From the NCBI GenBank assembly GCA_964553035.1, contig CAZKJH010000005.1, forward strand, positions 1 through 62,632: 62,632 nucleotides of DNA, read 5' to 3'. This DNA comes from an uncultured Lentisphaerales bacterium. GTDB taxonomy: Bacteria > Verrucomicrobiota > Kiritimatiellia > RFP12 > UBA3636. The position numbers and the translations under genes were made by a program. Every line of letters begins with the position of its first letter. Within the stretch, counting starts at the first letter, position 1. The notes beneath the pieces are model-generated. The model had not been told where the DNA came from. It ran no database searches and was given only the letters and a program-made list of their open reading frames with translations. Positions 6,015-52,751 of this stretch are shown in pieces.

Positions 6015-7563
6015 CCTTCTTGCGCTCGGTGATGTCTGTATCCACACCCCGATAGCCCAGAAATTCTCCGTCATTGCCGAAAATCGGCGCTCCGCTGGTC
6101 CGCATACAGACTCTTCGACCCTCTTTAGTTAGGCTCCAGTTTTCCAAATCCTGGAACGCTTTCTTGCCCCTGACAATCTCACCGAAGATGGCTCCGACCC
6201 GCTTGGCTTCATCGGCGGGCATGAAATCTAAGGGGGTCTTCCCTAGAATTTCACCCTCCTGATAGCCCAGTGTGGTTTTAAATTTTCCGGCGATGTAGGT
6301 GTAGATGCCATTCGTGTCCACCTGCCATATCCAATCAGACATGCTTTCGACAATGTCCCTGAAACGCGCCTCGCTTTCATGTAGCATCTGCTCCGCCTGC
6401 TTGCGCTCGGTGATGTCGATGCCGGTGCCCACCAGGAACGGCCGACCCGCGACCATCATGCGCCGCCCCGTCATCATCATCCAGATGCTGTTCGGCCCGC
6501 CGTGTAGCAGCACCCGACCTTCCACGATCTCATCCTTGCCGTTCTGCAATACATTCACGATGCTCGATTGGATGAGGGCCCGGTCTTCCGGGTGGATGGT
6601 CTCGATCGCGTTCAGGCCCGTCATCTGCTCGTCCGTCTTGCCGGCAATGACATCACGCTGAAAGCTGTTCCAGCGTGCGTAGCGTCCGTGTTCGTCGAGT
6701 AGGTAGAAGGTGCCGGGGATACTGTCGATAACGGCGTTGCTGAGGGCTTGCTCGTTTTGGGCCGCCACCTCCGTCTGTTTGCGCACGGTGATGTCTGTGA
6801 AAGAGGTGGCAAACTTGTTTTCGCCGGTGCGAAAGGCCGTCACATCAAAATGCCGGTCAAGCGATGCGGAGTAATCCTCAAAATGCATCGACTCCCCAGT
6901 TTCAACCACGCGACCATACCGTTCGAGCCACTGTGGTTCCAATCCCGGAATAACTTCCCGGACGGTCTTGCCGACGATGTCTTCCGCCCGAAGATTCAGA
7001 AGCGTTTCGAAGGCCGGGTTCACGGCCAAAAAACGATAGTCCACGGGCTTGCCCCTGCCATCAAAAATCATTTCATGCACGGCGAAACCGGAAAGCATCT
7101 TTTCAAAAAGCAGTTGGTAGTCCTGCCGCACCTGATCGGCCGTGCGGCGCAATTGGGCCTCGGCCCGACTGATCCGCAGGGCCACCTTGACGTGCGCCAC
7201 CAGCTCATCATTATCCAACGGACGGGTCAGGAAGTCGTCGGCACCGACATCCAACCCCTTGGCCTTGAAGCTGGAGGAGGCTTCGTGCGAGGTCACCAGA
7301 ATCACGGGGATATGCCGGGTCGCTTCCGTCGATTTTATTTTTTGGCACAATTCGATGCCGTTCAGGACCGGCATCTGCACATCGAAAATGGCGGCGGAAA
7401 CATTCACCGTGCGAACATAATCCATGACCTCGGTTGGTTTCTGAAAGGTGACGATCTCAACCTGCGGCAGCGCCCTTTGGAGCACCTTTTTCATGACCAC
7501 CAGATTATCCGGGGTGTCGTCCACCAACAGCAGGGTCTCAGCATCTGTCTTTGGTTTGTTCAT
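5839..7563 (-). CDS. Response-regulator receiver fused to three PAS domains, no recognisable output domain
   Basis: I moved the start to the ATG at 7563 (MNKPKTDAETLLLVDD...), which overlaps the upstream stop as TAATG. The receiver reads LLVDDTPDN...FDVQMPVLNG. PAS segments are separated by ITVRKQTE, ITERKQAE and ITERKKAE. The C-terminal tail is ...RVAELKTEVNELAARLGEPPLYG. Confidence 0.85.
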   Translation of the reverse strand: MNKPKTDAETLLLVDDTPDNLVVMKKVLQRALPQVEIVTFQKPTEVMDYVRTVNVSAAIFDVQMPVLNGIELCQKIKSTEATRHIPVILVTSHEASSSFKAKGLDVGADDFLTRPLDNDELVAHVKVALRISRAEAQLRRTADQVRQDYQLLFEKMLSGFAVHEMIFDGRGKPVDYRFLAVNPAFETLLNLRAEDIVGKTVREVIPGLEPQWLERYGRVVETGESMHFEDYSASLDRHFDVTAFRTGENKFATSFTDITVRKQTEVAAQNEQALSNAVIDSIPGTFYLLDEHGRYARWNSFQRDVIAGKTDEQMTGLNAIETIHPEDRALIQSSIVNVLQNGKDEIVEGRVLLHGGPNSIWMMMTGRRMMVAGRPFLVGTGIDITERKQAEQMLHESEARFRDIVESMSDWIWQVDTNGIYTYIAGKFKTTLGYQEGEILGKTPLDFMPADEAKRVGAIFGEIVRGKKAFQDLENWSLTKEGRRVCMRTSGAPIFGNDGEFLGYRGVDTDITERKKAEEALRVKMEELQRWQTATLGREGRVAELKTEVNELAARLGEPPLYGALESSERKENS

Positions 7564-10500
7564 TATGCATTCTCCTCCCCACCCATCCATTTCCGGATCC
7601 TTGCGCTCAGCGCGGCAGGCTTAACCGGCTTGGACAGGTAGTCGTCGCACCCCGCCGCGAGGATTTCCTCCCGCTCACCAGCCATGGCCGATGCAGTCAG
7701 GGCAATCACCACGGTGTTCTGCAGGGTCTTATCCTGCTTGATCAGTTGCGTGGCTTCCAGCCCGCCCATCACGGGCATCTGGATGTCCATGAGGATCAGA
7801 TCCGGACGCTCGGCTTTAGCCACAGCCACGGCCTCTTTTCCATTGCGGGCTTCAAAGATTTCCAGCTTCAGGTCGCTGAGACCCGCTCTGAGAATAGAGC
7901 GGGTCGTGGTCAGATTGTCAGCATGGTCGTCGACAACCAGAATCGACAGCGCACCATCTTTGCGCGGAATCACGCGAGGAACCGGTTTCTCCACGACACG
8001 TTTCTTCGCGGCGGCAACCTCCTTCATCCCGATCAGGCGGCGAATCGCGCCGATCAGTTGCGTGCGGTCGATGCTGCCTTTCTGAATGAGCTGGTGCACG
8101 TTGTTGTAGCTTAAAGAGGCTCGCTCTGCGGCGGTTAGATCTTTTGCGGTGAGAACCAGCACGGGAAGCTGTTTCGTCGCGGGCGTAGACCGGATGGATT
8201 CCAACACCTGGAACCCGTCCACCTTGGGCATCATTAAATCAAGAATCATACCGTCGGGCACATGGTCCCGGGTTTTGGCCAATCCCTCTTCACCATTCGT
8301 CGCCACATCTACGACAAGGCCGGCAGCGGTCAGGACACTCGTGATTTGATCTCTCGCCACCTGATTATCTTCCACAAGCAGAATGCGCGGCGGAGATCCC
8401 GCCGGCCACTCTTTAACCACGCGATCAGCTCTCGCGGGCTTCTGCTCAACGTGCGCATCTTGCGCCTCACTATGCATGGGCAGGGTCAGCGTGAACGTGG
8501 AGCCCTGCCCCACCTCGCTCTCCACATCGATCCGTCCGCCCAGCAGGATCGCCAACCGCCGGGAAATAGCCAGGCCGAGGCCCGTTCCACCATACTGCCG
8601 AGTGGTTGATCCATCGGCCTGCCTAAATTCGTCGAAGATCTGCGACAAGGCCTGTTCCGGGATTCCAATTCCCGTATCCCAGACGCTGAACACGGCCGAT
8701 CTGCCATCCTGCCGGGCCTTGATGCCGATTTCGCCCTTCTGGGTAAACTTTTGCGCATTGGACAGCAGGTTCAGCAAAATCTGCTTCAGCTTATCTTGGT
8801 CGGTCTGCAACTCACCTAGGCCACTCATCTCAACCGAGATGGACAGCCCTTTTTCATTCGCCAGCGGGCGAATGGCCTCAACCACCGCATCCACCGTCTC
8901 CGCAGCGGCAAAGGACGACACATAAAGATCCATCCGGCCCGCCTCGATCTTGGAGAGATCCAGAATGTCGTTGATCAGATTCAGCAAATGCCGCCCGTTG
9001 CGCTCAATAATTTCAACGCGCTCTTTATCCTCTCCCCCCGCGGCTCCAATCCCGTTGGAGAGCATCAGTTGCGAAAGCGACAGAACGCTGTTGAGCGGCG
9101 TGCGCAGCTCATGGCTCATATTGGAAAGGAACTCCGATTTGAGCCGATTGGCCGCCTCGACCTGCTGCTGCTGGGACTGAAGCTCAACGGCCTGTTCCTG
9201 CAGCTCCTGCGTCTGCTGCTCCATCTCGACGGCCTGCGCCTGAAGCTCGGCGTTGTTTGTGCGCAACTCCTCGGCCAGGCGCTGGGTTTTCACACTCGCC
9301 AACAGGTTGGAGAACGCCGTGCCCATTCCAATCTGCGCTAAATCGAGTGTCTGGCGGAACGTGTCGGGGAAGGCGCTAAGCGTGGCCAACGAGACGACAC
9401 CCATAACCTGACGACCCACCAGCAGGGGAACTGTAAGGATTTCCCGTGGGATGGCGGTGCCGCCCGTTGTCTTGAACGTGAAAACGGTGTCGGAGGAGAT
9501 ATCCCGGACGAGGGAGATTTGTCCCGTGGCGATGGCCTTGCCGAGTTCGCCTTCGTACCCTTTGGCACTGAAGGACTGCGGTGCGTCACCGCTCAACCCC
9601 ACCGAAGCGATTTGCTCAAACACGGCTCCATTTTCGCTGCGCAGGTAAAAGGCCCCTAGGTGCGAGCCGGAGAGGTTGATGAGTTTCATCAGCAACCCCG
9701 AGGCAAAATCATCGATAGTGTCAGCGATAACCAGTATCTCGGACAACTCGGCATACCCTCGACGAATCGCCATTTGAGAAGCAAGCGTCGCGACCATTTC
9801 GTTGAATGCCGCTCCCAAGGCGGCGACTTCGTCGGTTCCCTTGATCGAGCAACGGGCATCCAGCTCGCCGTTGGCGAACCGATGAACCGCGTCGCCAACC
9901 CCGAGGATCGGCCGGGAGAGCGTCTTGGACAGGAGCGGAGACACCAACATGACGACCAGAACGGTGAAACCAAAAACGAATAGCAATTTCTGCAGCATAT
10001 CATGAATCGGCGCATAGACTTCGGCCAGATCGCGCTTCGCCACGAAGCCCCACTGGGTCCGGGGAATATGCGTAAAGGCTGCCAAAACCATCTTGCCGCG
10101 ATAGTCCAAGTCTTCGATAATACCCGTCTCGCCAGCGGCACCCCGTACGGAGGGTTGAGCGGAAATCTTCAGTTTCAGCGGCGCATTCTCATACCATCGC
10201 AGTTCGTTGAGGGCTACACCGTCCTTGTTTACAATCAACGTCTCGCCGGTTTCGCCCATGCCCATCCGGTTCTGAAGCAACGGATACAGCGACTGCGCCA
10301 GATCGACCCGGGCAACCAGCACCCCAACGAGGTGCTCGCCACCATGCACCAGGCTAAAGATGGGGGCGGAAAAAACCATGGCTGGTCGTTTCTCTATCTC
10401 GGAGTAAAAAACATCCTTGATGTAGATCTTCTTCGTGCGCAACGGCTCGGTAAAATACAGATCCGTTTGTTTGTCTTTGCCTTCCTGAGCCAGATCGGTG

Positions 10501-10892
10501 CTGATCACCACCTTGCCGCTGGTTGCAGTGACAATGAAAAGTTCGCTATAGTCTCCATAATTATCCAAAAACCGATGCAGCAGAGCCCGCACCCTCGAAA
10601 TTGCGACTTCATCCTGCTCAGTTTTAATTCCCACCGGAGTAGATTCCAGACCGCGCAGTTCGTAATCCCCTGCAGCAACTTGCAGATCGCCCATCCGTTC
10701 ATCCAGCCACAGATTCAGCATGTTAACTTTCAGGTTGCGGACAAGTTGAAGCTTTTCAAGCTCATTACCGCGAATGACGGCTGCCCTTTGAAAATAGAGC
10801 ACCGTGCCCATCGTCGCCAGCGACAGCATCGTCACGGCGAGGAACCAAAACGTCAGTCGCGCTCTCAAACTATTGAATCGCAGTTTTTTCAT
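7563..10892 (-). CDS. Hybrid sensor histidine kinase (TM, Cache-like, HAMP, GAF, coiled coil, HisKA, HATPase_c, two receivers)
   Basis: 1109-aa ORF. HAMP-like segment is RPILGVGDAVHRFANGELDAR...EVAALGAAFNEMV. H-box is MSHELRTPLNSVL and G-box is GGTGLGLAISRRLA. The receivers read ILLVEDNQVA...ILDLMMPKVDG and ILVVDDHADN...LILMDIQMPVMGG. Confidence 0.9.
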   Translation of the reverse strand: MKKLRFNSLRARLTFWFLAVTMLSLATMGTVLYFQRAAVIRGNELEKLQLVRNLKVNMLNLWLDERMGDLQVAAGDYELRGLESTPVGIKTEQDEVAISRVRALLHRFLDNYGDYSELFIVTATSGKVVISTDLAQEGKDKQTDLYFTEPLRTKKIYIKDVFYSEIEKRPAMVFSAPIFSLVHGGEHLVGVLVARVDLAQSLYPLLQNRMGMGETGETLIVNKDGVALNELRWYENAPLKLKISAQPSVRGAAGETGIIEDLDYRGKMVLAAFTHIPRTQWGFVAKRDLAEVYAPIHDMLQKLLFVFGFTVLVVMLVSPLLSKTLSRPILGVGDAVHRFANGELDARCSIKGTDEVAALGAAFNEMVATLASQMAIRRGYAELSEILVIADTIDDFASGLLMKLINLSGSHLGAFYLRSENGAVFEQIASVGLSGDAPQSFSAKGYEGELGKAIATGQISLVRDISSDTVFTFKTTGGTAIPREILTVPLLVGRQVMGVVSLATLSAFPDTFRQTLDLAQIGMGTAFSNLLASVKTQRLAEELRTNNAELQAQAVEMEQQTQELQEQAVELQSQQQQVEAANRLKSEFLSNMSHELRTPLNSVLSLSQLMLSNGIGAAGGEDKERVEIIERNGRHLLNLINDILDLSKIEAGRMDLYVSSFAAAETVDAVVEAIRPLANEKGLSISVEMSGLGELQTDQDKLKQILLNLLSNAQKFTQKGEIGIKARQDGRSAVFSVWDTGIGIPEQALSQIFDEFRQADGSTTRQYGGTGLGLAISRRLAILLGGRIDVESEVGQGSTFTLTLPMHSEAQDAHVEQKPARADRVVKEWPAGSPPRILLVEDNQVARDQITSVLTAAGLVVDVATNGEEGLAKTRDHVPDGMILDLMMPKVDGFQVLESIRSTPATKQLPVLVLTAKDLTAAERASLSYNNVHQLIQKGSIDRTQLIGAIRRLIGMKEVAAAKKRVVEKPVPRVIPRKDGALSILVVDDHADNLTTTRSILRAGLSDLKLEIFEARNGKEAVAVAKAERPDLILMDIQMPVMGGLEATQLIKQDKTLQNTVVIALTASAMAGEREEILAAGCDDYLSKPVKPAALSARIRKWMGGEENA

Positions 10893-10928
10893 CTCATTCT
10901 CCTACTATTCGTAATGTGGGCGATAAAT

Positions 10929-10948
10929 TTTTGACCGGATAACAGGAT
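10929..10948. repeat. Left arm of a 20-bp perfect inverted repeat flanking the GxxExxY gene (TTTTGACCGGATAACAGGAT)
   Basis: Its reverse complement is found exactly at 11403-11422. Confidence 0.9.
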
Positions 10949-10958
10949 AAGCCGGATA

Positions 10959-11351
10959 TCATGCATCTTGTTGATCCAGTCGCCTCAAATCCCGCACCTT
11001 CCGTTTCACTTCCACTTTTGTCTCTGAAAAATTAAGAATCAATCCTATTTCTTTATGGGTTGCTGTCAGGTAATTCACCACCTGTATCTCATGGGCGATA
11101 ACAATTTGTTTAACCGATTTCAGTTCAAGAATAACAACCGCCTCTACAAGAATATCTGCAACAAACTCTCCAACGGCCTCCCCGTCGTATTCAACATGGA
11201 TCGGCACCTGTGACTCCGCAACCAACCCCGCCTTCTTCAATTCGATCATCAGGCACTTTTCATATACAGATTCCAAAAAACCGAAACCCATTTTATTATA
11301 AACCTGATATGCGCATCCGATGATTTTTTCTGTCAGTTCTTTATGTTCCAT
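10959..11351 (-). CDS. GxxExxY protein (PD-(D/E)XK-like small protein family)
   Basis: 130-aa ORF. The N-terminus KIIGCAYQVYNKMGFGFLESVYEKCL carries the family-defining G-x-x-E-x-x-Y signature, followed by ELK and a conserved Q..NYL segment. A strong GGAGG lies upstream of the ATG. Confidence 0.8.
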   Translation of the reverse strand: MEHKELTEKIIGCAYQVYNKMGFGFLESVYEKCLMIELKKAGLVAESQVPIHVEYDGEAVGEFVADILVEAVVILELKSVKQIVIAHEIQVVNYLTATHKEIGLILNFSETKVEVKRKVRDLRRLDQQDA

Positions 11352-11400
11352 GTTGGCCTCCTTCAGGCGGTGCTGTTTCTTTTGATTTACTGGATCCTGA

Positions 11401-12255
11401 TCATCCTGTTATCCGGTCAAAATCTCCCGCCCCCTCTTTTTTATAGATTTTATTTTTCGCATCAATTGTCCTGAACCGTGATTTAAGATCGCCCACCAGG
11501 GCTTCGGACTCACCCAGCACCAGAATTCCACCCATGGCCAGCGCATTGTATAACTTCTTCAGCACCTGTTCCTGGTGCGGGGCAGAAAAATAGATCACGA
11601 CGTTCCGGCACAGGATCAGATCGAAGGATCCGTAGATACTCTCGACCGGCACCTCTGTCTGCTGCGACAGCAGATCCTCTACCGAAAAATGTACCATTTT
11701 TTTTATTTCATCGCAAAGCTTGAATTCATTCCCCAGAGAAGAAAACCAGGCGTCCACCCATCCGAGCTTAGCATCTTTCAGGCTTTCCCTTGTATACACC
11801 GCCCGTTCGGCCTTCGTCAGGATCTCCCGGTCGATATCCGTTGCAAAGATCAGGGGTTTCATGTTGGTGCCAGGGTTCCTTTTGAGTGCTTCCGCAATCA
11901 GGATGGCAATCGAATAGGCTTCCTCACCCGCCGCGCACCCGGCGCTCCAAACCCGCAGCGCACCCTGCGTCTTTTCGATCAATTGAGGAAGAATAGACTG
12001 TGCAAGGATTTCAAATACAACCGGATTGCGGAAGAAGGAGCTGACATGAACGGCAATGGTATTGACCAAGTTCGCGCACTCCGTTTCATCGTTGCGGCAA
12101 AGGGAAATATACTGATCCGCCTCCACTCCCAACCGCTCCAGCCGTTCCGATAAACGGCGAGTCAGCATGGGCGTACGGTAACCCGTCAGATCCTTGCCGG
12201 TTCTTTGCTGGACAATCTCCAATAGATCGTCAATCTGTCGCCTATTGATTGGCAT
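11401..12255 (-). CDS. cheR: CheR-type protein-glutamate O-methyltransferase
   Basis: 284-aa ORF. It has a CheR N-terminal helical segment (LTGYRTPMLTRRLSERL), the SAM-binding motif RVWSAGCAAGEEAYSIAIL, and FDLILCRNVVIYF. Confidence 0.85.
   Translation of the reverse strand: MPINRRQIDDLLEIVQQRTGKDLTGYRTPMLTRRLSERLERLGVEADQYISLCRNDETECANLVNTIAVHVSSFFRNPVVFEILAQSILPQLIEKTQGALRVWSAGCAAGEEAYSIAILIAEALKRNPGTNMKPLIFATDIDREILTKAERAVYTRESLKDAKLGWVDAWFSSLGNEFKLCDEIKKMVHFSVEDLLSQQTEVPVESIYGSFDLILCRNVVIYFSAPHQEQVLKKLYNALAMGGILVLGESEALVGDLKSRFRTIDAKNKIYKKEGAGDFDRITG
11403..11422. repeat. Right arm of the 20-bp inverted repeat (ATCCTGTTATCCGGTCAAAA), overlapping the last codons of cheR
   Basis: Exact reverse complement of 10929-10948. 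It encodes the CheR C-terminal residues ..FDRITG and abuts the stop codon. Confidence 0.9.
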
Positions 12256-12465: not shown

Positions 12466-12538
12466 GAGGGCGACCGTATTGACCTTGCTGTCAATGAAGT
12501 CAACAAGGTCAATACGGTCACAAAATATCATCGCCCTC
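12466..12538 (-). terminator. Long hairpin immediately downstream of the E1 gene stop (candidate terminator or processing stem)
   Basis: 16-bp perfect stem GACCGTATTGACCTTG (12472-12487) / CAAGGTCAATACGGTC (12504-12519). It is extended by GAGGGC (12466-12471) / GCCCTC (12533-12538). A T-run follows about 25 nt further on the minus strand, so this is not a canonical intrinsic terminator. Confidence 0.4.
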
Positions 12539-12541
12539 CCC

Positions 12542-15019
12542 TTACACCCCGAGCTTATTGCGGCGAATCATTTCGACGCTGGTAAAACTCTTCTGGGCGA
12601 CATGACCGGCGATGGGCTGAATGCGCTCGTGAAAGATGTCGATGAACCAGCTTGGTTGAGGGAAGAAATGGTTTTCGAGTTCGTAAGCTGGTGTTATCCA
12701 GTTGCGCGAACCAAGCACCACGACGGGCGCATCGAGGGAGTCGAAGCAGAGATCGCCAATGTTGCGGGCGAGCTCACTCAGGAAGGATCCACGGTCACAG
12801 GCATCACCCGCGACAATGATCTTACCAGTCTTCTTAACCGACTCAATGACCTTCTCGTAGTTGAACGGAACGAGCGAGCGTGCATCGATCACTTCAACGC
12901 TGATGCCGTGCTTCTCTTCGAAAATCTTCGCAGCTTCAAGTGCGCGGTACAGCGTTGCTCCAAGACTGAGGATGGTCAGATCCTTGCCGACCTTCTTCAC
13001 ATCCGGCTCACCAAACGGAATTTCGTAGCTCTCGACAGGGACGCCGCCTTCGTGGAACTGCTCGGCAATATCATAGATACGCTGGCTTTCAAAGAAGATC
13101 ACGGGATCGGTTCCGTTGAGCGCGGAAGCCATGAGGCCCTTGGCATCGTACGGGGTCGCGGGGAACACAACCTTCAATCCTGGAACTTGCGTACAAAGCG
13201 AAGTCCAATCCTGCGAGTGCTGGGCACCATACTTGGAGCCAACAGAAACGCGCACGACAACCGGCATTTTCAGAATACCAGCAGACATCGCCTGCCACTT
13301 GGGGAGTTGGTTGAGAAGCTCGTCACCTGCGCATCCGATGAAGTCGGCATACATGAGTTCGACCAGCGCACGACCACCGCTCATGGCATAACCAACGGCA
13401 GAGCCGATGATCGCGCCTTCAGCGATCGGTGAGTTGAAAAGACGATGATAGGGCACTGCTTCCGTCAGGCCACGGTAGACGGCGAACGCGCCACCCCAGT
13501 CGCGATTCTCTTCGCCGTAGGCGACGAGGGTCGGATCTTCATAGTACTTGTCGAGAATGGCCTCGAAAAGTCCGTCACGGAGTTGAAAAACCTTGTTCTT
13601 GGAAACGGCCTTTCCGTCGGCATCAAAAGCAAAGCGTTCCTTCTTTGCAATCTGCTGTACACGAGCACTTTCCTCACGGATCTGCAGCATATCGACCGGG
13701 CGATCTTCCATCTTCACACGACGCTCGTTTGAAAACATGAGCTTTTCGATCGCGTCAGGCGTCACGTCGAGATTCATGCGTGGGGACACCACGGGATCAG
13801 CCGCAAGGCGAACCGCGTCGGTGATCGTGCGGATAACCGATTCGTCGAGGGCGTCGAAGTCCGCTTCAGTAGCCAGCTTCGCGCTAATGATCTGCTTACG
13901 GAACGCGGTAATCGAATCTTCCTTCTGCCACATTTCCTTTTCTTCGTTTGTGCGATAGGAGTCGGCATCCGAGGGCGAGTGGCCAGAATAGCGGTAGGTA
14001 ATCGTGTCCATCAAAACAGGGCCCTTCTTCTCGCGCAGGACGGCGAGCTTGCGCGTCATCGCTTCGATGACCGCCAGCGGATTGTATCCGTCAACGCGTT
14101 CCGCATGCATCTGATTCTGGTTGACACCAGCGCCGATGCGGGCGGGGAAATCGTAACCCATGGTCTCACCACGAGTCTGTCCGCCCATTGCATACTGATT
14201 GTTCATGATGTTGAAGAGCAACGGCAGACCGCCCTTCATGTCGTCATCCCAGAGCGTACGGAACTGATCCATGGACGCGAAGGACATTGCTTCCCATACG
14301 GGGCCGCGCCCCATCGCACCGTCACCGATATTGCACACCACGACGCCTGGCTTGCGGTTGACCTTTTTGAAAAGTGCAGCGCCGACGGAGATGTCGGCAG
14401 AGCCACCGACGATGGCGTTGTTCGGATAGATACCGAAGGGAAGGAAGAAGGCGTGCATCGAGCCGCCGAGCCCCTTGTGGAAGCCGGTCTCCTTCGCAAA
14501 GATTTCAGCAAGTGCGCCGTAAACGAGAAACTCGATCGCCAATTGCTTGACGCTCAAGTTGCGGCTCTTGTTCGCGTGTTCGACAATCCGGTAGGCTGCG
14601 CCACCGAGAAAACTCTCCATGATAGTCAGTAGTGATTTATCGTCAAGCTGATGGATAGAGGAAAGACCCTTTGCCAAAATCTCGCCATGGCTACGGTGTG
14701 AACCGAAGATGTAATCGTCTGGCGTCAGCAAGTAGGCTTGACCAACCGAGGATGCTTCTTGTCCCATGGAAAGATGCGCTGGGCCGGGGTTGTTGTACTC
14801 AAGACCATTGTAGGCGTTCGTGGTCTTGATCGAATACAACATGGTTTCAAATTCACGAATCATACACATGTGTGAGTAGATGCGTAGAAAATCATCCTTC
14901 GTGTAGAGTGACGACTCCTCTTTGATTGTCTTGCTGTATTGGCAGACTGGAATTTTATCGAATTTGATAAAGCTGGATTTCCGGACATCTGCTGGGTTGA
15001 TAAACAGTTGCTTGGCCAT
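12542..15019 (-). CDS. TPP-dependent dehydrogenase E1 component, fused alpha+beta subunits (pyruvate/acetoin/2-oxoacid dehydrogenase family)
   Basis: 825-aa ORF. The alpha-type part has GPAHLSMGQEA, GSHRSHG and GDGAMGRGPVWEA. The beta-type part has FNSPIAEGAIIGSAVGYAMSG and a transketolase-C-like end. Confidence 0.85.
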   Translation of the reverse strand: MAKQLFINPADVRKSSFIKFDKIPVCQYSKTIKEESSLYTKDDFLRIYSHMCMIREFETMLYSIKTTNAYNGLEYNNPGPAHLSMGQEASSVGQAYLLTPDDYIFGSHRSHGEILAKGLSSIHQLDDKSLLTIMESFLGGAAYRIVEHANKSRNLSVKQLAIEFLVYGALAEIFAKETGFHKGLGGSMHAFFLPFGIYPNNAIVGGSADISVGAALFKKVNRKPGVVVCNIGDGAMGRGPVWEAMSFASMDQFRTLWDDDMKGGLPLLFNIMNNQYAMGGQTRGETMGYDFPARIGAGVNQNQMHAERVDGYNPLAVIEAMTRKLAVLREKKGPVLMDTITYRYSGHSPSDADSYRTNEEKEMWQKEDSITAFRKQIISAKLATEADFDALDESVIRTITDAVRLAADPVVSPRMNLDVTPDAIEKLMFSNERRVKMEDRPVDMLQIREESARVQQIAKKERFAFDADGKAVSKNKVFQLRDGLFEAILDKYYEDPTLVAYGEENRDWGGAFAVYRGLTEAVPYHRLFNSPIAEGAIIGSAVGYAMSGGRALVELMYADFIGCAGDELLNQLPKWQAMSAGILKMPVVVRVSVGSKYGAQHSQDWTSLCTQVPGLKVVFPATPYDAKGLMASALNGTDPVIFFESQRIYDIAEQFHEGGVPVESYEIPFGEPDVKKVGKDLTILSLGATLYRALEAAKIFEEKHGISVEVIDARSLVPFNYEKVIESVKKTGKIIVAGDACDRGSFLSELARNIGDLCFDSLDAPVVVLGSRNWITPAYELENHFFPQPSWFIDIFHERIQPIAGHVAQKSFTSVEMIRRNKLGV

Positions 15020-17816: not shown

Positions 17817-18932
17817 TTATTTTAGCATGTTCTGACCGCCAGTCACAGGAATGGCTTGGCCGGTCTCGTAAAGTTGTTCGACGCAATACAGAATCGCCTT
17901 CGTCACATCGGAAGGCGAACAGCCGCGGCGCATCGGAACCTTCGCAACGTAAAAATCATACACATCCTGAACGGTTTTTGCACCCGGAACTTTGCCTGCT
18001 TTCAAATACTGCACAAAGAGCCCCTTCTCTGGATCGTTCCAAAGTGGACCTTCATAATAATTCCCAGGACAGATTGCGTTAACTTTGATGCGGTGCTCGA
18101 CAAGCTCCTTTGCAAAACTCTGCACAAGCCCGATGCCACCAAACTTGCCACCCGCGTATGCAAAATTTTTGTTCGATCCTTCTAGACCAGACTTCGAATT
18201 GATCTGCACAATATCGCTTGTATATGACTCGTCGAAACGCGCTTGAATTTTCATCGGACGCGCGGCGTACTTGGTCATCAAGAAAAATGCCGTGTAGTTG
18301 ATGCGCGTGACAAACTCGAAAGCCTGTAGCGTCATTTCCTCAAGGCCGCCCGCGCGCAAGATGCCTGCGTTGCTAACCAGAAGATCAAGCCCGCCAAAGC
18401 GCAGCACGGTCTGTTGAATCAAGTTCTGGACTGATGCCTCGTCACCCACATCCACCGCAAGCGCGTACGCCGTTCCGGCTCCGTGCTTTTCATTCAGCGA
18501 GGCTGCCACGGTCTCGGCAAGCGCGAGGTTCATATCCGCGATGACGAGGGTTGCGCCGCTAACGGCGAGTTCGCGAGCAATGCCTTCGCCAAACCCCTGT
18601 GCGCCGCCGGTGACCATGCTGATTCGTCCGGCAGACCGTGTTCCATTCTTGCTAGACGGCTCAGTAAGAGTAAACACCCCAACATCCTCAACAATAATGT
18701 GGCAGGGTCTTACACCCTGCGCCGCAGCTTGTTGAAGATTCGCGTAAACTGCATCAAGCGTGTCGCAATCCTTGATACTTAAGGTTAGATCGGCTGCATC
18801 CCCAGGCAGCCCCTTCTCGTCAAACGATACGAGAACTTGATCGTCCCGTTTAAACATCGCCCGAATTGCAGGTGCAATTGCTCCTGCAGCGTTATCAATG
18901 CCTCCGGTCGCTTCAACCCACTGTTTCATCAC
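17817..18932 (-). CDS. Short-chain dehydrogenase/reductase, sorbitol-6-phosphate-dehydrogenase-like, with ~105-aa N-terminal extension
   Basis: 371-aa ORF. It has the Rossmann motif MVTGGAQGFGEGIA, the catalytic YAGGKFGG (YxxxK), and a C-terminal segment KVPMRRGCSPSDV...TGQAIPVTGGQ resembling SrlD/SorD-type enzymes (recalled from memory). Confidence 0.75.
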   Translation of the reverse strand: MMKQWVEATGGIDNAAGAIAPAIRAMFKRDDQVLVSFDEKGLPGDAADLTLSIKDCDTLDAVYANLQQAAAQGVRPCHIIVEDVGVFTLTEPSSKNGTRSAGRISMVTGGAQGFGEGIARELAVSGATLVIADMNLALAETVAASLNEKHGAGTAYALAVDVGDEASVQNLIQQTVLRFGGLDLLVSNAGILRAGGLEEMTLQAFEFVTRINYTAFFLMTKYAARPMKIQARFDESYTSDIVQINSKSGLEGSNKNFAYAGGKFGGIGLVQSFAKELVEHRIKVNAICPGNYYEGPLWNDPEKGLFVQYLKAGKVPGAKTVQDVYDFYVAKVPMRRGCSPSDVTKAILYCVEQLYETGQAIPVTGGQNMLK

Positions 18933-19019: not shown

Positions 19020-20288
19020 TCAAATCGCCTCCGCATTGGCCAGCAAGTACCGCTCGGCGGCGGCGCACCAGAGCCCGTTGTTCTTCCCCACGATATCGGC
19101 CAACGCGGCAAAGACGCGATCCGATTCTCCGAGTTTTTTGAAATCCGAGATCGCGACTAATGGCATCTTGATCTGCGTGTAGATGAGCTTCTTACCACCA
19201 GAAATCTTCGGCAGATGCAATGTGGTTTCAATCACGCTGTCGAGTCCTCCCACGTGCGTGATCATGGCGGAGGGATTCACCTTACCGGTGGACATGACCT
19301 CGAGAGCCTCAAGCAGGTCCTCTGTCGTTCCTCCGCTGTTGCCAGCGAGGTGAGTGAGGTTATAGTGGACGTTATAGAAATTGAGCTTCGCGGAGAATGT
19401 GGGATCCGTCGGCCCAGCGAAGAAGTTGAGACAGCCATCGTAGCCGAGGATTTTGTCGGCCTGCTCGATCACGGCGGGAACTGGGGCGAAGGCGTAGACA
19501 TCGTTGAAACCTTTATCGCCGGTGAGCTTGAGAAATTCGGCGACGACATCATCCATTCCGGAGGTGTTGACATAGATGAGCTCAACGCCACAGCGCTTTG
19601 CCTCTTCAACGGTATAGATGGAGGCGGCACGAGCAAGACGAGCGGCATCGATGTCGCTGACAACGAGGCGTCCAGGCTTACGAGGCCCATGAAGAGCGAA
19701 ATCGATCGCGCCGAGGCCCATGGGACCGACACCAGCAAGGAGTGCCATGTTGCCGCCTGCAACTATGCCCATCGTGTGCTCGTAGCTACCGGGGCGCTTG
19801 TAATGGTAATTGACATTGAAGCCGCCAACGATGCAAGACATGGGCTCGCCGAGGGAGCCGAAGTAGAACGCCTCGCCCGTATACGGAAGGAGACAGCCTC
19901 GATCCATGACCTTCGCGGGAATCACGATATAGGTCGCAGCACCGCCGATAAATGGAAAGGAGTAGCCCGGCGCGGCGTAGACGTTGTCAGGATGGTTTAT
20001 CGCCGGTTGGATGGCAAAGCGATCCCCCACCTTAAACTGAGAAGCCCACTTGCTCCCCACTTCCAAAATTTCACCACAGAATTCATGCCCGATAATGACC
20101 GGATTCGTCGCTGCATCTTTCGGGACGCGCTTGTGATCGGTGCCCTGCATCGCCGCTTTGTAAGAGGACATACAGATACTGTCCGAAATCACCTTCGCGA
20201 GAATTTCATCCGACTTGATAGCAGGAAGCTCAAATTCCTCTAGCCGAAGGTCTTCTTTTCCGTACAGTCTGACAGCTTTGGTTTTCAT
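19020..20288 (-). CDS. Zinc-dependent medium-chain dehydrogenase/reductase, L-sorbose-1-phosphate-reductase-like
   Basis: 422-aa ORF. The N-terminus MKTKAVRLYGKEDLRLEEFELP...GHEFCGEILEVG is typical of MDR enzymes. Its ~420-aa length and N-terminus resemble proteins annotated as SorE (recalled from memory, not searched). Confidence 0.75.
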   Translation of the reverse strand: MKTKAVRLYGKEDLRLEEFELPAIKSDEILAKVISDSICMSSYKAAMQGTDHKRVPKDAATNPVIIGHEFCGEILEVGSKWASQFKVGDRFAIQPAINHPDNVYAAPGYSFPFIGGAATYIVIPAKVMDRGCLLPYTGEAFYFGSLGEPMSCIVGGFNVNYHYKRPGSYEHTMGIVAGGNMALLAGVGPMGLGAIDFALHGPRKPGRLVVSDIDAARLARAASIYTVEEAKRCGVELIYVNTSGMDDVVAEFLKLTGDKGFNDVYAFAPVPAVIEQADKILGYDGCLNFFAGPTDPTFSAKLNFYNVHYNLTHLAGNSGGTTEDLLEALEVMSTGKVNPSAMITHVGGLDSVIETTLHLPKISGGKKLIYTQIKMPLVAISDFKKLGESDRVFAALADIVGKNNGLWCAAAERYLLANAEAI

Positions 20289-37077: not shown

Positions 37078-39849
37078 ATGAACAAGCAGCAACTGGCGTC
37101 GAAAATATGGGAGTCCGCAAACCGAATGCGGTCCAAAATCGAAGCAAACGAATATAAGGACTATATTCTCGGGTTTATCTTTTATAAATACTTGTCGGAT
37201 ACCCAAATCAAGGATGTTCGTGAGAATGGCGGCACAGACGAGGACATCAAGGCTTTATCGGAAAATGACACTGACACGGTCCTAAGCATCCAGAAGAACA
37301 TCGGCTACTTCATCGCCTACGAAAACCTGTTCTCGACGTGGATTGAGAAAGGCAAGGATTTTAACGTATCGAACGTCCGCGAGGCGCTCTCCGCGTTCAG
37401 CCGCCAGATCAACTCCACGCACAAGAAAGTCTTTGATCGCGTTCTGAACACCCTAGAAACAGGGCTGTCGAAACTCGGTGACAGCTCCGGTACGCAGACG
37501 AGGGCGATCAGCGACCTCATCCAACTGATCAAGGTCATTCCGATGGACGGCAGGCAGGACTACGACATTCTGGGCTTCATCTACGAATACCTCATCAGCA
37601 TGTTCGCCGCAAACGCCGGGAAGAAGGCAGGCGAGTTCTACACCCCCCACGAGGTTTCCCTGCTCATGTCCGAAATCGTCGCAGACCATGTAAAGGACAG
37701 GAAGGAAATCAAGATTTACGATCCGACAAGTGGGTCCGGGTCCCTGCTGATCAACATTGGCCGCTCCATTGCGAAGCACATCGACAACGAGGACAACATC
37801 AAGTATTTCGCGCAGGAACTTAAAGAGAACACCTACAATCTCACGCGCATGAACCTTGTTATGCGTGGGATTTTGCCGGACAACATTGTCACGCGAAACG
37901 GTGACACCCTTGAGGATGATTGGCCGTACTTCGAGGAGAGTGACCCCATTGGCACCTACAATCCTCTTCATGTGGATGCGGTGGTATCCAATCCCCCGTA
38001 TTCGCAAGCATGGGATTCGGCAAACAAAGAAACAGATCCGCGCTTTGCCGCGTTTGGACTGGCTCCGAAGACAAAGGCCGACTTCGCTTTCCTGCTCCAT
38101 GATTTTTTCCATTTGAAGCCCGATGGCATCATGACCATTGTGCTGCCGCACGGGGTTTTGTTCCGTGGCGGCGAGGAAGGCGGAATCCGGAAGAATCTCA
38201 TCGAGCAAAACCACATCGACACCATTATCGGCTTGCCCGCCAACATCTTCTTCGGAACCGGCATACCGACCATCATCATGGTGCTGAAAAAGAAGCGGAA
38301 GAACAATGACGTGCTGGTTGTCGACGCATCCAAGGGGTTCTCCAAGGTCGGTAAGAACAACGTCCTCCGCGCTTCCGACATTAGGAAGATTGCCGATGCC
38401 GTCATCTACCGGTCGAACATTGACAAGTTCTCGCGGGTGGTCGGTTTAGACGAAATCCGCCAGAACGAATACAACCTCAACATCCCCCGCTATGTCGATT
38501 CATCCGAGCGCACGGAGACGTGGGACATCTACGCCTCCATGTTTGGTGGCCTGCCTGTGGCCGAAATTGATTTGCTGATGCCGTATTGGGACGCGTTTCC
38601 TGGGTTGAAAAACGCGTTGTTCGTGGATGTGGAGCGCGGCGACTTGTCGCCGCTTTCAAAGCGGGAACAAGTTCCCGCACTCCAGACAATGCCCTACTTC
38701 AAATTAGCCGTGAACGACATCGAAAAAGCAGTCCGCGAACATCCATCGGTGCTTACTTTCAAGCGCGGTTTCGATGCGGCTTTTTCCGGATTTGCGGGTT
38801 TCCTCAATAGCGAGCTTCTCGGCAAGTGGGAAACGCTTAAAATCGGTAAAGAGGAATCGGTTATCGCCGCTTCCATCTTCGAACGACTTGAAGGGATGGC
38901 TCTGGTCGATAAGTACAGCGCCTATCAAGCACTGGATGACGAATGGACAAAGACTGCTATCGATTTGGAAATACTACAAACAGAGGGCTTCGGCGCAGCG
39001 AAGAAGGTCGATCCCCACATGGTGCTGAAAAAGAAGGACGGCAAAGACCATGAGGTTCAGGACGGATGGGTCGGCCATGTCATTCCGTTCGAGTTGGTGC
39101 AGTCCACAATGCTTAAGACCGACGCTGACGCCCTGAAGCAGAAGGTGGAGCGGCTCGCGGAGATTCAATTGGCTTACGAAGAAGTCATTGATTCGCTGTC
39201 GGAAGAAGACAAAGATAGCGAGGTTCTTAACGATGCGAAGGATGCATTCGTCGCCGCCGCCTTGGCGAAGAAAATTAAGGAGCTGTGGGGTACGCTTGCA
39301 AAGGCAACGACCGCCGTTCTCGCTTGCGAAGAGGATTCATTTGAGCGGAAGCTGGTGCAGGTACAGCAGTTGATCGACGAGGAAAAGGAGCTGAAGGTGA
39401 AGGTCCGGAAGGACGCAGCAGCCTTGCACTTGCGGACAAAAGGAACTATCGAGGGATTGTCGGACGAGCAGGTTGTCGAATTGCTTGAAGCGAAGTGGAT
39501 TGAACCGCTGATGACCGCGCTCTACAAAATGCCTGACAACATCATGTCCGACTTGGTTTCGCGTGTTCGTGGCCTAGCAGACAAATACGCCACCACATAC
39601 GCCGAAGTTGCGGAGCAAATCTCCGAAACCAAATCGTCGCTCTCGGCCTTGATTGACGGACTGACAGGCAACGAATATGACCTGAAAGGTTTGAAGGAGT
39701 TTCAGTCGCTTTTGGAGGGGGAGACTCAGGCAGATGGGACGACTAAGCCTACTAAGGCGGCTAGGGAGACTAAGGCTACTGGGACTATGCCTAGCGGCCC
39801 TATTGGCCTTAGTCGCCCTAGCACAAAACCAAAGGAGTCGAAGCCATGA
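37078..39849 (+). CDS. hsdM: Type I restriction-modification system methyltransferase subunit (long form with coiled-coil C-terminal region) ending in a repeat-encoded tail
   Basis: 923-aa ORF. It has the HsdM N-domain (IWESANRMRSKIEANEYKDYILGFIFYKYLSD), the SAM motif YDPTSGSGSL and the catalytic SNPPYS. The last ~40 aa (TKPTKAARETKATGTMPSGPIGLSRPSTKPKESKP) are encoded by junction module A. Confidence 0.9.
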   Translation: MNKQQLASKIWESANRMRSKIEANEYKDYILGFIFYKYLSDTQIKDVRENGGTDEDIKALSENDTDTVLSIQKNIGYFIAYENLFSTWIEKGKDFNVSNVREALSAFSRQINSTHKKVFDRVLNTLETGLSKLGDSSGTQTRAISDLIQLIKVIPMDGRQDYDILGFIYEYLISMFAANAGKKAGEFYTPHEVSLLMSEIVADHVKDRKEIKIYDPTSGSGSLLINIGRSIAKHIDNEDNIKYFAQELKENTYNLTRMNLVMRGILPDNIVTRNGDTLEDDWPYFEESDPIGTYNPLHVDAVVSNPPYSQAWDSANKETDPRFAAFGLAPKTKADFAFLLHDFFHLKPDGIMTIVLPHGVLFRGGEEGGIRKNLIEQNHIDTIIGLPANIFFGTGIPTIIMVLKKKRKNNDVLVVDASKGFSKVGKNNVLRASDIRKIADAVIYRSNIDKFSRVVGLDEIRQNEYNLNIPRYVDSSERTETWDIYASMFGGLPVAEIDLLMPYWDAFPGLKNALFVDVERGDLSPLSKREQVPALQTMPYFKLAVNDIEKAVREHPSVLTFKRGFDAAFSGFAGFLNSELLGKWETLKIGKEESVIAASIFERLEGMALVDKYSAYQALDDEWTKTAIDLEILQTEGFGAAKKVDPHMVLKKKDGKDHEVQDGWVGHVIPFELVQSTMLKTDADALKQKVERLAEIQLAYEEVIDSLSEEDKDSEVLNDAKDAFVAAALAKKIKELWGTLAKATTAVLACEEDSFERKLVQVQQLIDEEKELKVKVRKDAAALHLRTKGTIEGLSDEQVVELLEAKWIEPLMTALYKMPDNIMSDLVSRVRGLADKYATTYAEVAEQISETKSSLSALIDGLTGNEYDLKGLKEFQSLLEGETQADGTTKPTKAARETKATGTMPSGPIGLSRPSTKPKESKP
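39741..39823. repeat. Junction module A: CTAG-rich palindromic 9-mer array at the hsdM 3' end
   Basis: Left arm is GACTAAGCC TACTAAGGC GGCTAGGGA GACTAAGGC. Right arm is ATGCCTAGC GGCCCTATT GGCCTTAGT CGCCCTAGC. It is related to the modules at 40841-41022 and 41620-41870. Confidence 0.8.
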
Positions 39850-41051
39850 GTGAAACAATGAAAACGCCTGAAAAGCAAGGGCTGAAAAGGACAACGAGTA
39901 GACAAAAAATCTCCATTCGGTTTTTCGGCGATGCCGAAGTTCGTGCGGTATGGGATGACGCACATTCCAAGTGGTGTTTTTCGATTCTGGATATTGTTGG
40001 CGTTTTACGTGGCGAACGCGATTATGAAAAAAATCGAAATTACTGGAAATATCTGAAGGCAAAGCTGAAACGGGAAAACAATCAACTGGGTAGTGTGACT
40101 ACCCAGTTCAAGTTCACCGCCCCCGATGGCAAGAAACGCGCCGCGAATGTCCTAGATTACAACGGTATTGTTGAGCTAGCGAAAAATTTTCCAAGCAAAA
40201 TGGCGAACCGTTTTATGGAATGGCTCACCTACAGCGATGAAACCATTGACGGCAAAAGCAAATCCAAGGCGTATGCTCTGTTTGACAGCACTTTGCTGGA
40301 TACCCTGGAAGTCGGTACGGTCAGAGGGTTGCAGCAAATTCATGGCTATCTGTTTGGCGGGCTTTATGATTTCGCGGGGCAAATCCGCTCGAAGAATATT
40401 GCAAAAGGTGGCTTTCAGTTTGCCATGGCGCGCTATCTGCCCCAAACGCTGAAAGACATCGAAGGAATGCCCGAAAACACCTTTGACGAAATTGCGGACA
40501 AGTATGTGGAGATGAATATCGCCCATCCGTTCATGGAAGGCAATGGCAGAAGTACCCGTGTCTGGCTTGACCTGATCTTGAAAAAGCGCCTCAAGCGTTG
40601 TGTGGATTGGAGCAAAATCAACAAGAAGGATTATTTGAATGCCATGGAAAAAAGCGTTTCGAATCCTTCGCAAATCAAGGCATTGCTGCAAAACGCAATC
40701 ACAGACAAAATCAATGACCGCGAAGTGTTTATGAAAGGCGTGGATTACTCCTACTATTATGAACAGGAAGATGGTGTCACCAACGATGTCGAAGTCCGCG
40801 CGGGTTGGGATGATGAACATTCCTCAAAAAATGGTTTTGCTAAGCCGACTAGGCCCACTAAGGCTACTAGGCCTCCTAGGCCCACGAGCAACAGCGCTAG
40901 TTGCCCTAGTGGCCCTCGTAGCCCTAATCCTGAGCCTGCGAGAACTAGGCCTACTAAGGCTACTAAGCCCCCTACGCCCACGAGCAACAGCGCTAGTAGC
41001 CTTAGCCGCCCTAGTGGCCTTACCCCACAACCTGAGGGTCTCCAGCCATGA
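39846..41051 (+). CDS. Bro-N-like DNA-binding domain fused to a Fic (AMPylase-type) domain, with repeat-encoded C-terminal tail
   Basis: 401-aa ORF. The N-terminal segment IRFFGDAEVRAVWDDAHSKWCFSILDIVGVL...YWKYLKAKLKRE...FTAPDGKKRAANV...FMEWL resembles Bro-N/antirepressor N-domains. The Fic motif HPFMEGNGRSTR is intact. SYYYEQ near the end of the globular part resembles the class III inhibitory motif. ATGA overlaps occur on both sides, and AAGGAG lies 8 nt upstream. Confidence 0.8.
   Translation: MSETMKTPEKQGLKRTTSRQKISIRFFGDAEVRAVWDDAHSKWCFSILDIVGVLRGERDYEKNRNYWKYLKAKLKRENNQLGSVTTQFKFTAPDGKKRAANVLDYNGIVELAKNFPSKMANRFMEWLTYSDETIDGKSKSKAYALFDSTLLDTLEVGTVRGLQQIHGYLFGGLYDFAGQIRSKNIAKGGFQFAMARYLPQTLKDIEGMPENTFDEIADKYVEMNIAHPFMEGNGRSTRVWLDLILKKRLKRCVDWSKINKKDYLNAMEKSVSNPSQIKALLQNAITDKINDREVFMKGVDYSYYYEQEDGVTNDVEVRAGWDDEHSSKNGFAKPTRPTKATRPPRPTSNSASCPSGPRSPNPEPARTRPTKATKPPTPTSNSASSLSRPSGLTPQPEGLQP
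40841..40930. repeat. Junction module B1
   Basis: GACTAGGCC CACTAAGGC TACTAGGCC TCCTAGGCC CACGAGCAAC AGCGCTAGT TGCCCTAGT GGCCCTCGT AGCCCTAAT. Confidence 0.8.
40941..41022. repeat. Junction module B2 (second copy, directly upstream of the four-helix-bundle gene)
   Basis: GAACTAGGC CTACTAAGGC TACTAAGCC CCCTACGCC CACGAGCAAC AGCGCTAGT AGCCTTAGC CGCCCTAGT GGCCTTACC. Confidence 0.8.
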
Positions 41052-52694: not shown

Positions 52695-52751
52695 CTTGGC
52701 AAACTAACTGCGCCTCCCGCGAAGCGGGAAAGGCGCAGTTAGTTTGCCAAG
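52695..52751. repeat. 21-bp perfect palindromic stem (CTTGGCAAACTAACTGCGCCT / AGGCGCAGTTAGTTTGCCAAG) with a nested CCCGC-GAA-GCGGG hairpin
   Basis: Read directly. Additional direct copies of the half-site occur at 52765-52775 (GTTAGTTTGTC) and 52838-52848 (TTTAGTTTGCC). Confidence 0.85.

Follow-up and report, generated by a model that had tools for sequence, protein, structure and literature searches.

A GxxExxY gene enclosed by inverted module arrays between cheR and a sensor kinase gene, and its family of palindrome-bounded cassettes

The 23S rRNA intervening sequences (IVSs), the REPIN–RAYT elements (short palindromic repeats found as hairpin-forming doublets, with their REP-associated tyrosine transposases), and the miniature inverted-repeat transposable elements (MITEs) with their autonomous terminal-inverted-repeat (TIR) transposons are the described systems closest to the subject of this study, a GxxExxY gene enclosed by a perfect 20-bp inverted repeat. 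The gene lies between cheR and a hybrid sensor kinase gene on contig CAZKJH010000005.1 (positions 1 to 62,632; assembly GCA_964553035.1) of an uncultured Lentisphaerales bacterium, probably a member of Kiritimatiellota; this whole stretch of 62,632 nt is called the window below. A preliminary description, made from the letters of the window, had placed the gene in a class of stem-bounded open reading frame (ORF) cassettes that insert between cistrons. The comparisons reported here concern the insertion itself, the family to which the cassette belongs, and the constraint on its arms.

IVSs, known from Coxiella, Leptospira, and Salmonella, resemble the unit in size (~0.4–0.75 kb), in 20–30-bp terminal inverted repeats that form a stem, and in a small loop ORF of unknown function; they are considered selfish elements that may be mobile. 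The IVS of Coxiella has a 28-bp stem, a loop ORF, RNase III cleavage, and tandem GACAGAT heptamers, which are close to the modules GACAGGAT, CACAGAT, and CGCAGAT of the family described below (PMC4990558). Unlike IVSs, our unit is found between protein-coding cistrons rather than in a 23S rRNA helix (9, 25, or 45), its ORF encodes a PD-(D/E)xK nuclease rather than a four-helix-bundle (4HB) S23p protein, and its family includes gene-less hairpin derivatives dispersed in genomes. In REPIN–RAYT elements, as in our unit, a gene sits between copies, inverted relative to each other, of a short palindromic repeat, which is found dispersed between genes as gene-less doublets as well; these elements are long-persisting and mostly vertically inherited (PMC3116915, PMC3337134). 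Here, however, the protein is of the PD-(D/E)xK type (Pfam gives PF13366 only) and not an HUH/Y1 (IS200/IS605-type) transposase, the gene itself is multi-copy and often decayed, the arms are arrays with a 9-nt period that begin TTTTGAC and have no GTAG tag, and the arm sequence recurs in several phyla.

MITEs and autonomous TIR transposons (e.g., Correia elements) share with the unit their terminal inverted repeats, many copies at unrelated sites, bimodal lengths with short gene-less forms arising by internal deletion, presence or absence at orthologous sites (the cheR–kinase junction, and locus L050 versus L061), and insertion in intergenic regions and gene ends. They differ from it in that our unit has no target-site duplication, encodes no DDE, serine, or tyrosine transposase, and has arms built of iterated modules. 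Rickettsia palindromic elements are palindromic repeats readable in frame within host proteins, and they carry no gene. The likeness, for which we draw in part on PMC3733652, lies in the in-frame reading seen in the window, where CheR has gained 11 residues and HsdM, Fic, and HsdS have tails from 9-nt arrays; our unit differs in carrying a gene, and the sequences are unrelated.

The unit misses a defining feature of each of IVSs, REPIN–RAYT elements, and MITE/transposon pairs. In kind it belongs with palindrome-bounded selfish cassettes and is best read as a mobile or formerly mobile cassette, IVS-like or REPIN–RAYT-like. The literature lists GxxExxY function as “unknown, multiple transfers” (PMC3424549); our literature search found nothing on GxxExxY beyond that functional note, and no description of the repeat, of arms joined to GxxExxY genes, of the module grammar with its 9-nt period, or of the derived hairpins.

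A cassette in the cheR–kinase junction

The arms, treated here as unstranded features together with their third modules, the inner arm copy, and the kinase-side flank, occupy positions 10929–10948 on the kinase side (TTTTGACCGGATAACAGGAT) and 11403–11422 on the cheR side, the second being the exact reverse complement of the first. No match to this inverted repeat arose in 100 dinucleotide-preserving shuffles of the window, with up to three mismatches allowed. The kinase-proximal arm consists of TTTT and two modules, GACCGGAT and AACAGGAT, and fits the family consensus TTTTGAC(C/A)GGATAACAGGAT; the module-bearing arm sequence of the cassette is TTTTGACCGGATAACAGGATnnnCnGGAT. Third modules continue the 9-nt period inward at 10949–10957 (AAGCCGGAT) and 11394–11402 (ATCCTGATC, or GATCAGGAT on the minus strand), and the inverted repeat lengthens to 29 nt with 90% complementarity (10929–10957/11394–11422). 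The sole ORF between the arms is the GxxExxY gene (10959–11351, minus strand, 130 aa), the single member of its family in the whole window, with a GGAGG ribosome-binding site at 11357–11361 (minus strand), 5 nt upstream of the ATG. A degenerate inner arm copy (10965–10981, ATCTTGTTGATCCAGTC) codes the C-terminal tail LDQQD of the protein, a tail also present in related cassettes.

On the minus strand, the gene order is cheR (11401–12255, 284 aa), GxxExxY, and the hybrid histidine kinase gene (7563–10892, minus strand; dCache-HAMP-GAF-HisKA-HATPase-2xREC), whose ribosome-binding site (aggagaatgag) and start codon are intact, 36 nt past the arm. The cassette unit measures 494 nt (10929–11422), or ~0.52 kb of added sequence if the imperfect outer flanks are included. 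These flanks lie at 10913–10928, which pairs imperfectly with 11423–11433 in the predicted RNA, and at 11423–11436 (minus strand), where the former cheR stop codon is now GAG (11434–11436). The preliminary description had reported the perfect repeat, the strong GGAGG, the position between cheR and the kinase gene on one strand, and a right arm coding the last CheR residues, FDRITG; our reexamination bears out each of these, the last T of the arm being the first base of the TGA stop.

Orthologous junctions were reached through the protein database, which gave CheR proteins 70–84% identical to that of the window and nine cheR–kinase loci that were fetched. Direct searches for cheR orthologues in genome and metagenome contigs returned distant CheR genes only, and the exact window proteins were found at the same locus only, on two Logan contigs. 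At eight of the nine orthologous loci (L145, L147, L150–L155), the spacer between cheR and the orthologous kinase gene is 2–27 nt long, and neither a GxxExxY gene nor a trace of the 20-mer was found in it. The position of the former stop holds TAG in eight of the nine loci (seven of the eight empty ones); L145 has TGA after a different C-terminal tail. For instance, the junction reads ...ATCTATCAGAAG TAG acaggaaaatgag ATG in L147 and ...TAG atgcagcaggagaatgag ATG in L155. The CheR orthologues examined are 273 aa long and terminate in ...NKIYQK, except for P0275 (281 aa), compared with 284 aa in the window. There, the former stop position reads AAA AAA GAG, and CheR is longer because TAG became GAG and translation continues into the cassette: 11 codons (EGAGDFDRITG) are gained up to a TGA on the arm’s inner edge. 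The distance from the old stop position to the kinase ATG is 541 nt.

The closest relative is the remaining locus, L149 (CheR 84% identical), whose spacer is 48 nt long, TAGggttGGTCAAAAgtccATCGCCCACATTACGAAgtttAGGAGAATGAGATG. Two of its segments recur in the window, namely the outer 8 nt of the kinase-proximal arm and the adjoining 17-nt flank. The flank is present in no other locus and, in the window, pairs in the predicted RNA with sequence across the cassette; the outer-flank sequence ATCGCCCACATTACGAA is common to these two loci only. L149 is most simply read as what a deletion left of a filled site, although it may instead represent a pre-existing target that resembles an arm end. An earlier expectation, that empty sites would be recognizable by one copy of the 20-mer, failed: relatives with the same gene order and no cassette do not keep the repeat, which is missing from the eight empty sites, and L149 has its outer 8 nt only. 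The idea of a discrete cassette between cistrons has fared better. Since empty orthologous cheR–kinase sites exist, comparison of these sequences identifies the GxxExxY gene and its arms as a cassette inserted between two cistrons, and we are highly confident both that it was inserted and that it belongs to a family whose arms are conserved. The 494-nt unit entered a formerly tight cheR–kinase junction in the lineage of this organism.

A consensus scan found no promoter or terminator inside the cassette. Expression would come from read-through of the cheR–kinase operon, which is likely because the cassette lies in sense orientation inside it, and translation would start from the cassette’s own GGAGG. 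The lack of a promoter consensus and the position between cistrons in the same orientation would also suit an integron-type gene cassette or a free-standing homing endonuclease gene, and PD-(D/E)xK homing endonucleases exist. However, the arms, the part compared with integron cassettes, do not fit attC cores (RYYYAAC ... GTTRRRY), and what flanks the gene is a pair of inverted copies of one motif array. A homing enzyme is directed to the empty target and not to the ends of its own element; gene-less hairpins at many unrelated sites are not to be expected from it. A chance repeat is excluded by the shuffles and by the comparison with mock positions given below. Taken together, these explanations are very improbable.

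Other readings of the arms were tried and dropped. TTGACC in the arm was considered as a sigma-70 promoter element and set aside after inspection and the consensus scan; an intrinsic terminator does not fit a T run before the stem and an A run after it on both strands; the likeness of GGATAACAGG to a DnaA box and to I-SceI/23S rRNA sequence is a short chance resemblance; and a CsrA site at CAGGAT was discarded on account of the module classes CACAAAG, CGCAGAT, and CACAGAT, which have no GGA. An Rfam scan of 10700–11700 (E ≤ 10) gave no match.

Arms and hairpins across the family

A search of a species-representative genome collection for the exact 20-mer returned 78 loci in many phyla, mostly gene-less hairpins of 50–190 nt. 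The hosts include Kiritimatiellales, Pontiella, and other Verrucomicrobiota; Phycisphaerae and other Planctomycetota; Desulfobacterales, Calditrichia, Nitrospiraceae, Gemmatimonadota, and Hydrogenedentota; and one archaeal bin. Pontiella sulfatireligans F21 has at least one hairpin copy (L077), and viral contigs gave three matches to the arm core. Wherever the available sequence suffices, a partner arm (≤3–5 mismatches) is found on the inner side of the 20-mer, compared with the outer side in 2 of ~80 cases, and conservation stops ~5–6 nt (a T run) outside GAC. Loop lengths form two groups, 16–150 nt and about 454–466 nt, and the total lengths of 132 elements are correspondingly bimodal, 44–150 nt and 450–520 nt. 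Among all ORFs of the 78 loci, phmmer identified five GxxExxY genes, all five in long loops; these units have the layout seen in the window, including the LDQQD tail from a degenerate inner arm copy.

Some of the shortened elements retain pieces of the gene: L054 has the remnant KKVEVKRKVRVL, L009 a ribosome-binding site followed by a MEIKEITEKI remnant, and L065 the remnant ERKVDVKRKVRDL, the three together including KVEVKRKVR or MEIKEITEKI peptides of the gene. Since they keep gene remnants, at least three shortened elements are identified by sequence as internal deletion derivatives of the gene-bearing unit. An orthologous site is occupied by a 54-nt hairpin in L050 and empty in L061. Gene-less copies outnumber gene-bearing ones within single bins; for instance, bin CSMAG_114 has at least 10 loci with the exact 20-mer and two with gene remains.

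Several further arrangements were observed among these loci. In L059, L061, and L063 (Phycisphaeraceae and Kiritimatiellaeota bins), a palindrome with CACAAAG/CACGAAG modules is nested in ACAGGAT-type elements; the nested module type also flanks the Brocadiaceae GxxExxY genes in an hsdR–hsdM operon. The Deltaproteobacteria bin JBBIIA01 has the 20-mer in tandem 106-nt direct repeats, not in a hairpin (L057 7821–7946; L018 33, 6328–6379), and in L018 a 13-nt unit holding GGGGGCGGGATA is also present four times in tandem. In L017, L021, L031, L048, and L065, the outer flank of the element is a repeated ~35-nt sequence (...ctaactgctctggttcataaattcggtcacgtattt), carried by four contigs from a single Verrucomicrobiota bin and by one Nitrospiraceae bin, and located beside ruvC in L065. 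In L047 (~6544–6695), a full second arm (TTTTTGACAGGATAACAGGAT) begins 2 nt past the first 20-mer, which suggests one element nested in or abutting another. The exact 20-mer and a GxxExxY gene occur on archaeal-binned contigs, L070 (a Bathyarchaeia bin) and L202 (an uncultured archaeon), representing either inter-domain transfer or a binning error. In the Pontiella bins L012, L015, and L066, a GxxExxY cassette lies 12–19 nt upstream of an orthologue of window gene 19020–20288 (MKTKAVR...) and, in L015 and L066, downstream of an orthologue of 17817–18932; the window has these two genes in reverse order and without a cassette. With the gene order different, the Pontiella loci do not provide a clean empty-site comparison.

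The arm grammar was examined across the GxxExxY protein family at 57 loci that hold close relatives and at 80 that hold more distant members (46–74% identical, many phyla). Flanking inverted repeats beat the best of 30–40 shuffles at most relatives at least 60% identical, and 41 of 77 diverse relatives have them above shuffles. Arrays were scored by asking for a hexamer with two or more copies in the 180 nt upstream of the gene whose reverse complement likewise has two or more copies in the 200 nt downstream; this holds at 67 of 125 GxxExxY loci, compared with 9 of 231 mock positions shifted by 800 nt. Inverted flanking arms at other GxxExxY copies, implied by the preliminary proposal of a class of stem-bounded cassettes, are thereby borne out for a large part of the family. 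The arms are arrays of two to four short modules in inverted orientation (8–9 nt each in the unit of the window, namely GACnGGAT, AACAGGAT, and nnnCnGGAT), with a sharp peak of module spacing at 9 nt (129 gaps), followed by 8 nt (51), 10 nt (20), and 18 nt (18). The module differs between groups: ACAGGAT in most, CACGGAT, CGCAGAT, CACAGAT, CGCGGAT, or AGGGAT in others, and CACAAAG in Brocadiaceae. Module class tracks protein clustering, mean identity being 58% for pairs that share a module and 47% for pairs that do not.

One large inverted repeat is the commonest form of these boundaries. A plasmid of a cultured Fusobacteria strain has the gene between direct copies of a 45-nt unit, each with a small CACAGAT/ATCAGTG hairpin; because of this case, we word the general rule more widely, as module arrays or hairpins on both sides. 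Other cassettes, like that of the window, are located inside operons, where they separate hsdR from hsdM (Brocadiaceae), the E1 gene from the E2 gene of a 2-oxoacid dehydrogenase, a molybdopterin/Fe-S protein gene from that of NrfD, and one amidohydrolase gene from another. Tandem two-domain GxxExxY proteins of 250–274 aa were also seen (P0121–P0125, P0218, P0255, P0270).

What constrains the arms is best judged from gene-bearing copies found through the protein, a sample unbiased with respect to arm sequence. Their arms are identical to those of the window at 19–20 of 20 positions, while their genes have diverged to a synonymous rate (dS) of 0.6 to saturation, with a nonsynonymous to synonymous ratio (dN/dS) of 0.08–0.13. 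Given arms that are near-identical while synonymous sites are saturated, sequence comparison places the arms themselves under selection, and the low dN/dS does the same for the protein, as purifying selection. We then aligned the two arms of 39 elements in register and compared them at the variable positions, i.e., the N of GACnGGAT, the 3-nt spacer, and the N of the third module. Arm-to-arm identity at these positions is 0.62, 0.38, 0.38, 0.49, and 0.28 within an element, versus 0.45, 0.35, 0.37, 0.44, and 0.36 between unrelated elements, and compensatory change was found at none of them in the 39 elements. Because the variable positions do not covary, the arms are kept as inverted sequence motifs and not as a duplex, and they look like recognition sites. 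That the two arms of the window are perfectly complementary over 20 bp comes from their common fit to one strongly conserved consensus and not from upkeep of the stem, which the preliminary description had suggested may be an RNase III site or an insertion signature.

The opposite emphasis, with the arms primarily an RNA device, would have an RNase III-cut duplex excise or stabilize the GxxExxY mRNA, in the manner of IVS excision from 23S rRNA, and uncouple cheR from kinase expression; the conserved arms would then reflect this RNA function. In its favor, folding of the minus-strand transcript 11470–10880 predicts a long-range stem around the cistron in both the minimum free energy and centroid structures (z = −3.5), growing from 20 to ~34 bp through outer-flank pairing that contains G.U pairs. 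Furthermore, G.U-compatible arm mismatches in 23 elements number 63 on the sense and 34 on the antisense strand, and the genes are mostly co-oriented with their neighbors inside operons. The stem, loop ORF, RNase III cleavage, and tandem heptamers of the Coxiella IVS are a further point for it. However, a purely structural role would permit compensatory drift, whereas the same sequence is found across phyla with synonymous sites saturated. The arms do not covary, and 203 of 300 mismatches are transversions that break pairing; the G.U bias on the sense strand is weak. The spread of the units and their hairpin derivatives is left unexplained. Co-orientation (80% upstream, 71% downstream) is near what we estimate for neighboring bacterial genes generally, and we set it aside as uninformative. 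An RNA device is, on balance, unlikely to be the primary role of the arms. For arms kept as motifs, an RNase III site at the predicted stem remains plausible: the enzyme could cut there as it does in IVSs, a secondary consequence and not the main constraint on the arms.

The encoded nuclease and its proposed role in movement of the unit

The GxxExxY protein matches PF13366 (PDDEXK_3; E 1e-40, 139 bits against a cut-off of 22) and TIGR04256 (GxxExxY; E 7e-41, 139 bits against a cut-off of 35). The motif residues G24-F-L-E27-S-V-Y30, D66, and E76-L-K78 are present; in 45 homologues, no variation is seen at G22, G61, K78, Q90, Y94, L95, and N107, and almost none at E27, D66, and E76. Searches of solved structures by sequence gave chance-level matches only, whereas the AlphaFold model (predicted local distance difference test 93, predicted template modeling score 0.86) has as its best solved-structure match Cas4 SSO0001 (template modeling score 0.62 on the query), followed by lambda exonuclease, RecE, and MGME1. 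The model and the motifs mark the protein as a Cas4-like PD-(D/E)xK nuclease with an intact catalytic motif. No meaningful match was found among the PHROGs phage families. The family is large, with 15,223 members among 50%-identity cluster representatives at E ≤ 0.001 and 3978 at E ≤ 1e-10, and it includes decayed copies with stop codons or a lost start (L087, L093, L101, L104, L084, L110).

The protein might have no role in movement: REP-like hairpins, spread by another enzyme or through replication errors, would then serve as portable homology, between which ordinary recombination carries a useful host gene, e.g., a nuclease of repair or defense. Hairpins without the gene do outnumber gene-bearing units, as in bin CSMAG_114; two elements (L023, L063) have the same arms but other content; purifying selection acts on the protein, and its copies are stable in position, at one locus; and CGTC/TGTC-tagged REP families have been reported without a dedicated transposase (PMC3733652). 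What makes this explanation quite improbable is that the empty cheR–kinase sites have no pre-existing hairpin, and that the gene remnants derive the shortened elements from gene-bearing units and not the reverse. Module class tracks the protein clade, and the several pseudogene copies are expected of a selfish unit rather than of a host gene. Nor did the protein significantly match any PADLOC defense family (best E 0.004).

We therefore return to the reading in which the arms are recognition sites. RNase III would not fix a sequence and a universal host protein would not explain clade-linked modules; the encoded nuclease is therefore the most economical recognizer, and we infer that it recognizes the arms. 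The module arrays would be its recognition sites, the nuclease would act on the element’s own ends to move or maintain the element, as a RAYT transposase does on REPINs, and the gene-less hairpins would be non-autonomous derivatives of the gene-bearing unit. That the window unit belongs to a large family of palindrome-bounded GxxExxY cassettes, with arrays recognized by the encoded nuclease and hairpins as non-autonomous forms, is in our view probable, with room for considerable doubt. The full mechanism, in which the nuclease acts on the arms, is held more tentatively and at best approaches an even chance.

Several observations weigh against this reading. Binding of the nuclease to the arms rests on co-occurrence and co-variation, and simple co-inheritance would look alike. 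About half of the sampled genes, mostly distant ones, have no arms above background; these distant genes are 33–56% identical, many of them in Bacteroidota, and the most distant (33–41%) are without arms above background. To our knowledge, no PD-(D/E)xK protein acts as a sole transposase. Most 20-mer loci come from metagenome bins, and errors of binning may underlie some of the phylum assignments. A search of 63 elements for target-site duplications found none (flanks match over 0 or 1 nt in 58, and no length recurs consistently), which sets the unit apart from classical DDE-type transposition. No pair of near-identical copies was seen at different sites: the exact protein P0023 is on 22 contigs, all one locus, and copies differ by at least ~8% in protein sequence. 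The lack of such pairs implies that mobility is old or rare, and the window copy may now be immobile.

Inverted arrays in the restriction–modification operon and wider meaning

A second case in the window concerns the restriction–modification (R-M) operon, where a Fic gene (39846–41051) and a gene for a 4HB protein with a TIGR04258 suffix domain (41048–41617) lie between hsdM (37078–39849) and hsdS (41607–43154). The array-bearing stretch (39729–41868, plus strand) contains imperfectly complementary blocks at 39729–39821, 40838–41022, and 41646–41868. At all three junctions, an array of a 9-nt unit (ACTAAGGCT/ACTAGGCCC) is followed by its reverse-complement array (AGCCTTAGT/AGCCCTAGT), the last array (41691–41868) having 20 copies. 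The arrays are translated in frame, as TKPTKATRP... ending HsdM and Fic and as SSLSSLSSPS... beginning HsdS; because these tails and this start are coded by 9-nt arrays, the true ends of HsdM, Fic, and HsdS are uncertain. The Fic/4HB arrays share their grammar with the GxxExxY arms, namely a 9-nt period and inverted arrays flanking an inserted small gene. Within the window, this supports the earlier grouping of 4HB with GxxExxY cassettes and the earlier claim that complementary arms enclose the 4HB gene, the blocks being imperfect; phmmer found no further 4HB genes in the fetched loci. A wider proposal is that GxxExxY genes with inverted 9-nt arrays constitute a new class of autonomous mobile element of ~0.5 kb, with a 120–130-aa Cas4-like nuclease that recognizes the arrays as sole protein and the gene-less hairpins of many phyla as non-autonomous derivatives, and that 4HB cassettes, including the 23S rRNA IVSs (GACAGAT repeats) and the 4HB/Fic arrays of the window, share this arm grammar; we consider it possible but doubtful.

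Further inverted repeats were noted elsewhere in the window. A perfect 21-nt inverted repeat with a 15-nt loop lies at 52695–52751 (CTTGGCAAACTAACTGCGCCT/AGGCGCAGTTAGTTTGCCAAG), with a third copy, 83% complementary, ~100 nt on at 52827–52849, and a perfect 18-nt inverted repeat with a 91-nt loop is found close to the window start (101–118/210–227). The hairpin at 12472–12519 (19 nt, 95% complementary, 10-nt loop), immediately 3' of the E1 gene (12542–15019, minus strand), is possibly a terminator.

GxxExxY (PF13366) is a very large family with no known function and many copies between unrelated genes, and it now has a testable identity. Much of the family travels as a unit with clade-linked inverted 9-nt arrays and leaves gene-less hairpins, and the cassettes insert between cistrons without breaking the operon. 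For annotation, this accounts for gene ends that have been changed, among them the CheR tail of 11 residues and the tails of low complexity encoded in the R-M operon, and for a class of conserved intergenic hairpins in the Planctomycetes–Verrucomicrobia–Chlamydiae group and other phyla. If the nuclease acts on the arms, these cassettes would be among the smallest self-contained mobile units of bacteria and a new use of the PD-(D/E)xK fold; if true, this could explain orphan palindromic repeat families without a transposase and the origin of the rRNA IVSs.

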